Below, in pieces: positions 1 through 23,064 of a stretch of DNA of 36,985 bases. Numbering within the stretch: the stretch's first letter is position 1; each line of letters begins with the position of its first letter. The notes under the pieces are model-generated. The model was not told the origin of the DNA. It ran no database searches and was given only the letters and a program-made list of their open reading frames with translations. Both the position numbers and the translations under genes were made by a program. Source of the DNA: Elsinoe ampelina (Eukaryota); assembly GCA_010093995.1 (NCBI GenBank), contig ML992546.1, forward strand, positions 1-36,985. The letters are read 5' to 3'.

Positions 1-1532
1 AGTTCTTCAGTACCAGAGAAGCTGTACCAGCCTTCCATTACAACAAGAAGACGTCTTGGCCGCGCCGAGCCGCTAGAACAAAACACCTACCGCAAAGAGT
101 CTAGACACGTCGCCGCCGCCTTGTCCTTGTGGCAGATTGCATGCTTCACATTTTCGCTTGTGAGTAATTCGCTCCCAGCCGTCCGGGATGTCTCGTCTGT
201 GCTTCCATTTTTGATGTTACCCTCCTCGATCATCACGGGTTGACTAAGTTACTGTGGAGCCGCTGCAGAACGAGATGGTGGCGACTCGGGGCTTTTTCTT
301 CTGCCACAGATCTGCGCACCACATAGGGGGCTGCAAATGGCGACAAAGGCTTGTCCTCCCGTGTGAAACAGGCTCTGTGGAACATGTTGTTTCTGCCGTG
401 CGAGTTCGCATTGAAGACATCCCTGCACTTGCAGGACGGCTGACCGAGATTACTGATAGCGGTTTCTTCAATTTGAGAGGTCAGTCGTAAAGATGCCATC
501 TAAAACAAATTTGGTCCAAGCTACGACTTTGCCAGCACCATTAGGCATGGCGAAATGGCCAACAACTTGGCGACCTCGTCATGTGCATCGTCTGTTAATC
601 ATGTCAATCCTTTTCGGTCTGTCGCGGTATCGCGTGCACATGTCGCCATGGCGCAAACTTGTCCATTAGGGAAGGCAGAGGATTTCCAGAGAAAGCTACT
701 CGACTCGTGGTCAGCTATACCGACTTCCTCAGGCCTTCATCATACTCAGCTGGCTTCTGAAACAAGCGCCGAATAGTCTAAAGCCTAGCCTTTACGTACT
801 GAAAACGGGCATCGTCGGCCATGGTGTCGGCATGCATTCTGGTAGGACCGGCCTTGGTAGTGGTGTTTCCTTCGGCATCATGGGCTTTGCTTCTGGTAGG
901 TCGGGCACTGCATTCGTGAGTATGGCAACATTGGCCATCCCTCTGGCACCATCGGCTGCGTCGGTTTCTGGAGGAACAGGTCTTCTGTACCAAGGTCTCT
1001 TGGCTCTTTGTCTCTGTCTCTGTCGGGAAGATCATGAGAGGTTCTTCAGGGATATATGACACTCTGCAGCCTGGACGTTGGACACAACTTTGGCCTCACA
1101 TCGTTAGTGCCTATATTTGCGAACTGATTGTCATGACAATTCGTCTAATGGCTGTCGACACTGAAAGTGATGAAGCATGTCCTACTATAACACCAGTGGA
1201 AGTGGGGCTTTGTGCTGTGAGTACACTAATGGAAGGACTTGTTTTGGCGTGGTAGTATCATGATGGATTGACTACCAGGTCTTTTAGCCATTATCAATTT
1301 CTGGGAACAGTTCATGGAGGTTTGATAGTATCGTTGGGAATTGGCTGAGATGTCCTTCACTACCACTCAGCCACTGTGAGATTATAACAACATGTCTTCA
1401 TTAAAGACTACGTATTAGCTTCCCCACCGTTGCTCTGCCCATTGAACAAGCTATTCAGATCTGAGACGAAGAAATGGATAATAGGTCCCTTACTGTCGCT
1501 TTCCAAATAGCAAGGGACGGGCCCTGGTGGTT

Positions 1533-2330
1533 CTAGTGAGGAGTCGACTGCCAGACCTTGCGCCATCTCCCAGCCAGTAGAGGTGCTTTCGGGTCCAATC
1601 GTATGAACGGGGACTGACCGCTGGTAGTATGAATGGGATTATCTGCTAGCTCCATTCCGGCTTCAAAAAAGTTTCTCGTGTGACCGCCTGGTAGTATCAA
1701 AGAGCACCAATCACCAGTGCGTCCAAGTACAGCCGGTCCAGCACTGAAGCCCACAAAGATGTGCAAGATTCCTGTCGGATTCTTTGCAGGGTCCACAAAT
1801 CGAGCAGGACTCTGATCGCGCTGGCCGTTGATGATCTGAGTCTTCAAAGACCAATCGCCCGTTGGCTTGGCCGAAGTGAAGGTCCAGGATAGCACAAGTG
1901 GTGGATGGATAGTACCACTTGTCGGCAAAAAGAAGTCCACCATCTTCTGCTGACGGTCATCGTTGGGTTTTGGAACGTACACTCCGGAATGTCTGGTGCA
2001 AGTGAGGATGGCGGCTAGAGGTTGGGGAGGGGTCTCGGGAGAAGAAAGAAGGGGAGGATCTGATATCCTTTCGATTGGAGGTGTTCCGATGGTGGCCACA
2101 TTGACGTTGGCTGCTGCGGTGTACAGAGCCGTCGAGTCTTGGGCAGCGACAGCATCAGCAGTAGCTCTTTCGGTGTCTTTTCCCTGTTGCCAGGCTTCAA
2201 GTCGTTGCCGAATGCGATTTGTCCATTGAGGACGTGGGATCTAGCATTGGTCCACCCGCTGTTCACAGTAACGTTCCGTAGACTTACTTTGTGCAGGTCT
2301 CTCTGCAGCGTCTTCCTCTTGGCCCTTCAT
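1533..2330 (-). CDS. Orphan hypothetical protein, possibly frameshifted or a pseudogene
   Basis: The frame is open from 2240 to the stop at 1533 (IPRPQWTNRIRQRLEAW...KVWQSTPH). It is preceded by a 47-nt GTAAGT...TAG intron candidate (2287-2241) and an ATG at 2330, but that first exon (43 nt) is one base out of phase. No family recognised. Confidence 0.35.
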
Positions 2331-21596: not shown

Positions 21597-23064
21597 ATGT
21601 CATCACTGCTTCAAAAGGTCAAATCTGCAGTCCACAGTGCGAATGATTGGGCTGAGTCGCATTCTTCACATCATCCCGGATATCGATCCGTCTGCTACTA
21701 TGTCAATTGGGCTATATATGGACGAAATCATCAACCGCAAGACCTACCAGCACATCTTCTAACCCACACATTGTACTCTTTCGCCAATGTGAAGCCAGAT
21801 GGCGAGGTTTACCTCACAGATACCTGGTCAGATATTGAGAAGCACTACCCATCCGACTCCTGGAACGATGTAGGCACCAATGTCTATGGTTGCTTCAAGC
21901 AGATGTATCTCCACAAGAAACGCAACCGAAACTTCAAGACTCTCCTCTCAATAGGGGGCTGGACTTACAGCGCGAACTTTGCCGCTCCCTGCTCAACGGA
22001 CGCCGGTCGTCGAAGGTTCGCTGAAAGCTCTGTTCAGCTCCTTAAAGACCTCGGTCTCGACGGCTTAGACATTGACTGGGAGTACCCAGCAGATGCCTCT
22101 CAAGCACAGCACTACACCCTCCTTCTCAAGACTATGCGAGAAGAACTCGACACCTACGCCGCCACTTTGCCTTCCAGACCACATTTCCTTCTCACTATAG
22201 CCTGCCCTGCGGGTGCACAGAACTATCAGAAGCTCGACATCCGAGGCATGGACCCTTACCTCGATTTCTGGAATCTCATGGCTTATGACTTTGCCGGCTC
22301 ATGGGACCAACAATCCGGCCACATGGCCAACATCTACCCCAGCAAAGACGCCCGCAGCACCCCTTTCGCCGCCGACCAAGCAGTGCGATACTACATCGAC
22401 TCCGGCGTCCGCCCCGCCAAGATCGTTCTCGGCCTGCCCCTCTACGGTCGCGCGTTCTGCGGCACCGACGGCCCAGGATGCGGCTACAATGGCATCGGCG
22501 AAGGCAGCTGGGAGAAAGGCGTGTGGGACTACAAGGTACATCCTCCCCTTCTTCGCCCCTCCCCACCCCCCCTCCTCCACGATGACACAAATAGAGCTGT
22601 GTAGAAGCCCCTTATGGTCCTACCTCAAGAACCTCCGCGGGCCTCGCTGAGCACACAACTTGATCTAATCTGACCCCCGCTCCTCCCTCCTCCTCCACCA
22701 TGCACCATCCCTCCTGCCATCCCAAGCTCACCCCATCCAGGCACTCCCCCTCCCCTCCTCAGAAGTCCACCACGACCCCGACGCTCTAGCATCATGGTGC
22801 TACCTCCCCTCGACCAAAACCATGGTTTCCTACGACACGCCGCAAAACGCCGCTGGCAAAGTGGAGTACATCAAGTCCCACCACCTGGGCGGCGCGATGT
22901 GGTGGGAGTCTTCGGGAGACAAAACAGGGGATGAGAGTTTGATTAACTTGACCGTGCAAGGGCTGGGTGGGTATGAGGGGGGGAGGATGGAGAGGGGGGA
23001 GAATTGTTTGGAGTATCCACATAGTAAGTATGATAATTTAAGGAAGGGGATGCCGGGGGAGTGA
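21597..23064 (+). CDS. GH18 chitinase (fungal subgroup A, no signal peptide); exons 21597-22535, 22741-23064
   Basis: Motifs [20 protein letters not shown], catalytic [28 protein letters not shown] across the intron 22536-22740 (GTACAT..GCTCAC..CAG) and [12 protein letters not shown]. Confidence 0.96.
22579..22673 (+). ncRNA. Candidate intronic box C/D snoRNA/scaRNA with an antisense element to U2 snRNA
   Basis: Box C-like ACGATGA at 22579-22585 and box D CTGA at 22670-22673. ACTTGATCTAA (22658-22668) is the exact reverse complement of fungal U2 UUAGAUCAAGU. It forms a 95-nt mixed-composition island within a poly-C intron about four times the usual length. Confidence 0.65.

Follow-up and report, generated by a model that had tools for sequence, protein, structure and literature searches.

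A candidate box C/D guide RNA for U2 small nuclear RNA in the intron of a chitinase gene of Elsinoe ampelina

We analysed a stretch of 36,985 nucleotides (nt) of the Elsinoe ampelina genome (contig ML992546.1 of assembly GCA_010093995.1, forward strand), called the window in the following. On its plus strand, a GH18 chitinase gene is made of two coding exons separated by a 205-nt GT..AG intron, and a 95-nt island within this intron, at positions 22579-22673, probably encodes a box C/D small nucleolar RNA (snoRNA) directing the 2'-O-methylation of U2 small nuclear RNA at G26 (G25 in human U2). From the sequence data at hand, we estimate the probability of this reading at about 0.6. The argument rests on the register of the predicted guide, on its position in an intron and, above all, on the pattern of conservation. 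The original prediction had proposed an intronic box C/D guide aimed at the U2 G25 equivalent, hosted by an unusual gene that could couple chitinase transcription to U2 modification: the core of this idea is supported by the register and by conservation restricted to the island, whereas the remarkable host and the coupling are not. All coordinates are collected in Table 1.

The island lies on the sense strand, 43 nt from the 5' splice site and 67 nt from the 3' splice site. Its base composition is balanced (A/C/G/T = 28/29/21/21%), and both intron segments around it are pyrimidine-rich, rather than poly-C as first described. The length of the intron, the limits of the island, its motifs and the 67 nt left to the 3' splice site were all found correct upon direct reading. 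A variant box C opens the island and an exact box D closes it. The putative antisense element immediately precedes box D, from which it is separated by a single spacer U, whose position would allow it to form a pair, in stem II of a kink-turn, with the final A of box C. The guide was predicted to be unpaired in both the minimum free energy and the centroid folds of the island.

The presumed target was then considered; the literature is cited here by PMC number. Nucleotides 1-50 of yeast U2 contain UUAGAUCAAGU, in which the G is G26 (PMC3177201), the yeast numbering of this residue being one more than the human one. Relative to this sequence, the guide is a perfect 11-nt complement, set off from box D by 1 nt; the fifth base counted back from CTGA, C22665, faces the G. 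The fifth-base geometry claimed for the human G25 equivalent thus agrees with the 5' sequence of yeast U2 (PMC3177201). The resulting 11/0 duplex has an energy of -12.5 kcal/mol, computed with the S. cerevisiae U2 sequence. Human U2 is 2'-O-methylated at G25, and this modification is assigned to scaRNA2 (PMC7960923, PMC2811027). Helix Ia of U2/U6 begins with the target G; in the structure of the yeast spliceosome this residue, U2-G26, lies within the helix and is stacked on U6-A59, which belongs to the catalytic AGC triad (PMC6294511).

How often would such motifs be met by chance? Pairs of YGATGA and CTGA motifs 50-110 nt apart occur 13 times in the window. The guide followed by box D, allowing up to 2 mismatches, is found once in the window, where 0.34 occurrences are expected, and 27 of 100 shuffled sequences contained at least one. 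Neither motif is therefore significant alone, since box pairs are common and the combination of guide and box D is frequent in shuffled sequences. An exact 11-mer placed in the right register is much rarer: its probability is about 2e-5 when only nucleotides 1-50 of U2 are considered, and about 3e-3 when every usual target is allowed. What stands above chance is the combination of an exact register, a location on the sense strand of a spliced intron, and boxes that edge a block which is conserved, unlike its flanks.

This conserved block was visible in a comparison with a relative, called here organism C. A DNA contig of this organism (run X12, depth 111) spans the whole 599 nt compared, with 44 substitutions and 8 gaps. 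The island differed at 3 of 95 positions and the intron flanks at 22 of 110 (Fisher test, p=1.8e-4). Exons provided a second yardstick: among their 22 differences, 20 were synonymous and 19 fell at third codon positions, and compared to the 19 differences at 131 third codon positions, the island was again the more conserved (p=0.005). One C>G of the tally is absent from the 40 listed substitutions, and these two p values would become 6e-4 and 0.013 if it lay in the island. Two blocks, 22571-22612 and 22644-22676, are free of any difference, so that identity extends from 8 nt before box C to 3 nt past box D at the two ends. All three island differences are central and fall at positions predicted to be unpaired, leaving box C, guide and box D untouched. 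In organism D, a 157-nt contig (22590-22736) carries 4 single-base deletions, all of them in the 3' flank. Conservation of the island only, as anticipated in the original prediction, is thus observed in organism C, the single relative with a DNA contig across the whole intron. These comparisons favour an island under selection, as a box C/D guide RNA would be.

If the island is indeed a snoRNA, its production would proceed as follows. The chitinase pre-mRNA is spliced, as shown by contigs in which position 22535 is joined to 22741 (one contig of run X7 and one of run X14; X7 is from the same organism as the window and RNA by guess, X14 is from organism D). By analogy with the general biogenesis of intronic box C/D RNAs, the excised intron would be debranched, and exonucleases would shorten it from either end up to the point where they are halted by the proteins bound to the C/D kink-turn, Snu13, Nop56, Nop58 and the methyltransferase Nop1/fibrillarin. 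The 11-nt guide beside box D would then pair with UUAGAUCAAGU of U2, and the G in UUAG, which faces the fifth base before box D, would be methylated on its ribose. This residue would correspond to G26 of yeast and Neurospora U2, or to G25 of the human RNA.

Table 1. Features of the chitinase locus, differences observed in organism C, and metagenome loci of the L010 family (positions of the latter refer to their own contigs)
Feature	Positions	Strand	Remarks
Candidate box C/D snoRNA island, 95 nt	22579..22673	+	single copy in window; ordinary composition; organism C: substitutions at 22613 and 22643, deletion of a single base at 22627, in 95 nt
Box C variant ACGAUGA	22579..22585	+	6/7 RUGAUGA positions, GAUGA core intact; unchanged in organism C
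Possible degenerate D' box CUGU, uncertain	22597..22600	+	sequence only; 11 nt after box C
Second exact CUGA, alternative D' box, uncertain	22647..22650	+	from sequence; only GCACACA between CUGA and guide
Putative antisense guide ACUUGAUCUAA (DNA ACTTGATCTAA)	22658..22668	+	complement of U2 UUAGAUCAAGU; C22665 opposite target G; unchanged in organism C
Spacer U (T22669)	22669..22669	+	from sequence; same T in L010, L022 and L049
Box D CUGA	22670..22673	+	from sequence; unchanged in organism C
Spliceosomal intron, 205 nt, GTACAT...CAG, phase 0	22536..22740	+	run contigs skip exactly 205 nt
Pyrimidine-rich 5' flank, 43 nt	22536..22578	+	65% C, 23% T; organism C: 5 substitutions and 3 indels in 43 nt
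Pyrimidine-rich 3' flank, 67 nt	22674..22740	+	60% C, 18% T; organism C: 11 substitutions and 3 indels in 67 nt
Probable branch site CTCAC	22727..22731	+	A22730, 10 nt before 3' splice site
Chitinase GH18 coding exon 1	21597..22535	+	ATG at 21597; open reading frame and translation; 939 nt, multiple of three
Chitinase coding exon 2, stop codon included	22741..23064	+	translation; Pfam PF00704 positions 266-317
Upstream exon, part compared	22340-22535		organism C: 12 differences in 196 nt
Downstream exon, part compared	22741-22938		organism C: 10 differences in 198 nt
L010	1501-1594	-	snoRNA-like family, fungal-looking metagenome contig
L022	69-160	-	snoRNA-like family, fungal-looking metagenome contig
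L049	1501-1591	+	snoRNA-like family, fungal-looking metagenome contig

The same guide was also looked for in metagenomes, with a pattern in which GATGA is followed, after 55-85 nt, by CTTGATCTAA, a single base and CTGA. The scan returned 67 loci, most of them in bacterial-looking or coding sequence. Terminal complementarity of at least 4 bp was present in 15 of 72 hit instances, against some 13.5 in permuted controls, and as terminal stems are not enriched, most of these loci are chance matches. Rfam gave no match at E<=1 for the 11 of the 67 loci that were most snoRNA-like. Three loci nevertheless formed a family, to which no Rfam family corresponds. L010, L022 and L049 are mutually homologous over some 92 nt (interior z 6.7-10.3, with none of 300 shuffles as good), while their flanks have diverged. 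They have in common a box C, and AACTTGATCTAAT followed by CTGA as box D, and also keep an internal CAGATGA, a conserved block TGGTATCGCTG and a C' box of the TGATGA type. All three have a 4-bp terminal complementarity, with sequences that differ from one to the next (TCCC/GGGA, GCCC/GGGT and TGTC/GACA), and L010 and L049 share the start of a downstream gene.

This family resembles the island by its 13-nt guide, spacer T and CTGA, by its length, and by a CGATGA box C in 2 of the 3 members. It is also intron-like by its GT...AG signals, starting some 30-45 nt after GTATGT or GTAAGG and ending some 55-65 nt before AG. It differs by its 4-bp terminal complementarity and clear C' box, neither of which exists in the island, and by its host, as it lies upstream of a gene unrelated to chitinase. 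Homology between the island and the family was rejected: global z values were 0.5-1.6, 143, 367 and 288 of 1000 shuffles attained the local scores obtained with its members, and 9 to 22 of 64 unrelated hits did equally well. The match itself proves nothing, because the loci were found with a pattern derived from the island. Within the family, the guide is under selection, because three diverged homologues have all retained it. Judged from these sequences, the family adds credibility to a methylation of fungal U2 at this position.

Two other groups of loci deserve mention. A 5-bp terminal complement is also present in L012 and L047; these two were not counted, their GATGATGA being part of an apparent short open reading frame. 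L015, L028 and L064 (each at 1501-1587, plus strand) are near-identical contigs from related samples, with CGATGAC, GGTCAAAATTACTTGATCTAAT and CTGA. They may represent a further guide of the same kind, their similarity to the L010 family not being significant.

Several observations weigh against a U2 guide RNA in the island. Concerning the element itself, box C has a C at position 2 where the consensus has U. The 12 nt that precede box C form no base pair with the 12 nt that follow box D, counted in the same way as for the metagenome loci, and an external stem is also impossible because both flanks are C/T-rich. A share of intronic box C/D RNAs has no terminal stem. No UGAUGA-like or otherwise convincing C' box was seen in the island, none follows the CUGA at 22647, and the D' box is ambiguous. 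The fold of the island is no stabler than that of shuffled sequences (z=+0.62, with 151 of 200 shuffles folding as well), and so brings no support; an absence of excess fold stability is normal for box C/D RNAs. The Rfam search that had been suggested recovered no family: covariance models gave 0 matches in the whole window at gathering thresholds, and no snoRNA family on 22400-22900 at E<=10. The island furthermore has no detectable homology to the L010 family outside the boxes and guide.

Other points against concern RNA, target and conservation. Contigs of run X7 contain spliced exons only, and contigs cannot show the ends or the abundance of an RNA. The target sequence is that of budding yeast U2, and not this organism's own, and S. 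cerevisiae U2 has no known 2'-O-methyl residues according to the excerpt of PMC7960923. The literature covered yielded no fungal U2 G25/G26 mark or guide, the target lists of the "fungal snoRNAome" (PMC5824354), which may contain one, being outside this coverage; the only U2 marks of filamentous fungi mentioned in the excerpts of PMC2780460 and PMC2377427 are U2-Am31, which is verified, and U2-Gm183 and U2-Am32, which are predicted. Finally, the conservation argument is built on one full-length pairwise comparison, with no phylogeny, and mutation may be faster than average in the flanks, given their low complexity. The partial contig of organism D adds little, as 4 of its 5 substitutions are at unlisted positions.

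With these weaknesses in mind, we considered what else the island might be. It could be another kind of conserved intronic element, for instance one that regulates splicing, a structured RNA, or DNA acting as an enhancer or internal promoter, its motifs and U2 match being coincidental. The lack of a terminal stem, of an Rfam match and of RNA evidence would all fit with this, as would the frequency of YGATGA...CTGA pairs in the window (13, see above). We hold it to be unlikely, because a box sits at each edge of the conserved block and the register of the guide is exact. Near-complete conservation over 95 nt is also long for a protein-binding DNA site, and the unremarkable fold stability reported above (z=+0.62, 151 of 200 shuffles as stable) speaks against a structured RNA. 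Another possibility is a genuine box C/D snoRNA for which the U2 match is not the function, or not the sole one, with another target guided by the region that follows box C or precedes the internal CUGA, or with no target at all, as in orphan snoRNAs. Conservation that spans the whole 95 nt, beyond the D guide, would be accounted for in this way, and two possible D' boxes are available, at 22597 and 22647. With its 11 AU-rich nt, the duplex is among the weakest of accepted guides, and A. fumigatus and Neurospora commonly have box C/D RNAs that are orphans or for which several targets are predicted (PMC2377427, PMC2780460). This possibility is nevertheless rather improbable, given the low probability that an exact in-register 11-mer arises by chance (about 3e-3 for any usual target, about 2e-5 within U2 nucleotides 1-50), the methylation of this very site in humans (PMC7960923), and the retention of the same guide in the unrelated, snoRNA-like L010 family.

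The last possibility is that nothing in the island is functional, the 3' motifs being branch-point-like sequence, and the low divergence a sampling noise between close relatives. In this strain, the intron indeed has no CTRAY match other than CTAAT (22665) and CTGAC (22670), and the full comparison is a single, pairwise one. The use of splice signals argues otherwise. An AG at 22725-22726, between the island and the used 3' splice site, is skipped, so that this splice site is the second AG after the motifs. CTCAC at 22727-22731 is the sole motif of this type downstream of the skipped AG, and a C22729>A change in organisms C and D turns this weak motif into a consensus CTAAC. Taken together, the skipped AG and the CTAAC of the two relatives indicate that the branch site is most likely A22730, which places the island some 57 nt upstream of it; CTAAT and CTGAC, put forward in the original prediction as an alternative branch-point sequence, are unlikely to play this role. 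Sampling noise is in turn hard to reconcile with the contrast between the island and its flanks (p=1.8e-4) or third codon positions (p=0.005), and we regard an island devoid of function as very improbable indeed.

Some simpler identities were set aside. An in-frame stop and the 1-nt deletion of organism C led us to reject the island as a coding or alternative exon. Its minus strand has no box motifs, no U2-like extension beyond 11-12 nt and no Rfam match to U2, and ARAGORN found no tRNA within 22300-23000. Run X14 also holds, besides its spliced contig, the unspliced 157-nt contig over 22590-22736, which delimits no small RNA because it extends to the region of the 3' splice site. This run is labelled "DNA?" and yet includes a spliced contig, and the unspliced contig has a word depth about twofold higher (5.4 against 2.4), which may correspond to a retained intron or to a lariat. 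We also noted that a 10-nt direct repeat, CCTCCTCCAC, brackets the island (22571-22580 and 22689-22698). It could be the footprint of an insertion; equal 10-mers exist elsewhere in the window, and the sequence is of low complexity.

Returning to the proposed U2 guide, its features were compared to those of known systems. Introns host 45 of the 55 box C/D RNAs of Neurospora, in most cases at 41-60 nt from the 5' splice site (PMC2780460). The 43 nt found here fall in this usual range, and were counted in favour of a snoRNA. Several accepted predicted guides of Neurospora are likewise 11/0, among them the one for U2-Gm183 (PMC2780460). Human scaRNA2 (mgU2-25/61), predicted for U2 Gm25 and Cm61, has the same predicted U2 nucleotide as the island, and would share with it the chemistry of fibrillarin-type 2'-O-methylation by the fifth-base rule (PMC2811027, PMC7960923). 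It is a 420-nt, capped RNA made from its own Pol II unit, with a C/D and a C/D-like domain (PMC2811027), unlike the island, which is some 95 nt long, intronic and single-domain; no Rfam model reveals a sequence relationship between the two.

Closer in size are the U2 guides of about 92-101 nt that act a few bases away, namely the SCARNA9-like CD29 of Neurospora with its filamentous-fungal cognates, and Afu-191 (AM921920) of A. fumigatus. CD29 is an intronic box C/D RNA whose U2-Am31 target has been confirmed by primer extension (PMC2780460), and Afu-191, listed as intergenic, is a U2-Am32 guide by prediction (PMC2377427 table 1). Both were compared with the island by their published descriptions. 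In CD29 a U faces A31, whereas in the island C22665 faces G26, and the CD29 duplex has 16 bp (PMC2780460), compared to 11 bp for the island guide. The base of the island facing the A of UCAAGU lies 10 nt upstream of box D, so the CD29/SCARNA9-type register (human Am30) is absent.

Should the G26/G25 guide be real, it would extend the set of fungal U2 methylations toward the vertebrate pattern, and would place a mark on a base in stacking contact with the catalytic AGC triad, at U6-A59 (PMC6294511). A deletion of these 95 intronic nt would provide a compact and tractable test of the role of this conserved methylation in splicing, a question that human cells, with a multifunctional scaRNA of 420 nt as the guide, make harder to address. 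Long introns, such as the chitinase one and others like it, would also merit annotation as snoRNA hosts. A broader scenario can be drawn, in which filamentous fungi, unlike budding yeast, methylate the U2 base that starts helix Ia by means of at least two unrelated guides converged on an identical 13-nt antisense. As one of them would reside here in the only intron of a chitinase gene, the amount of guide available, and perhaps also the extent to which U2 is modified, would vary with chitinase transcription and thus with cell-wall remodelling. This scenario is speculative, and we consider it doubtful.

As for the host gene, Pfam PF00704 matched exon 1 with E=1.6e-69 over profile positions 1-255 of 317, and the two exons carry consecutive parts of the GH18 profile. 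The nearest clusters of this chitinase in the protein atlas are from Ascomycota. The claim that such a host is unusual for a spliceosomal guide was not borne out, since human U2 guides also occupy genes unrelated to translation, such as TRRAP for scaRNA28 (PMC12150615); by analogy, a chitinase host is not in itself remarkable. The suggested coupling of chitinase transcription to U2 modification came without evidence. Regarding intron length, a value of 46-58 nt had been given for the other introns of the window. It is backed by a crude heuristic script only, which returned eight short-intron candidates of 46-57 nt among 38 candidate rows, all of them candidates without RNA verification.

Two isolated differences were noted in the gene itself. 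A C>A change at window position 22417 (Ala to Asp) is common to runs X7, X12 and X16, which means that the strain of the window has the odd allele at this chitinase residue. In organism C, a C replaces the A at 22538 (5' splice site position +3, giving GTCCAT), an unusual base at this place that may be an alignment effect of the low-complexity sequence.

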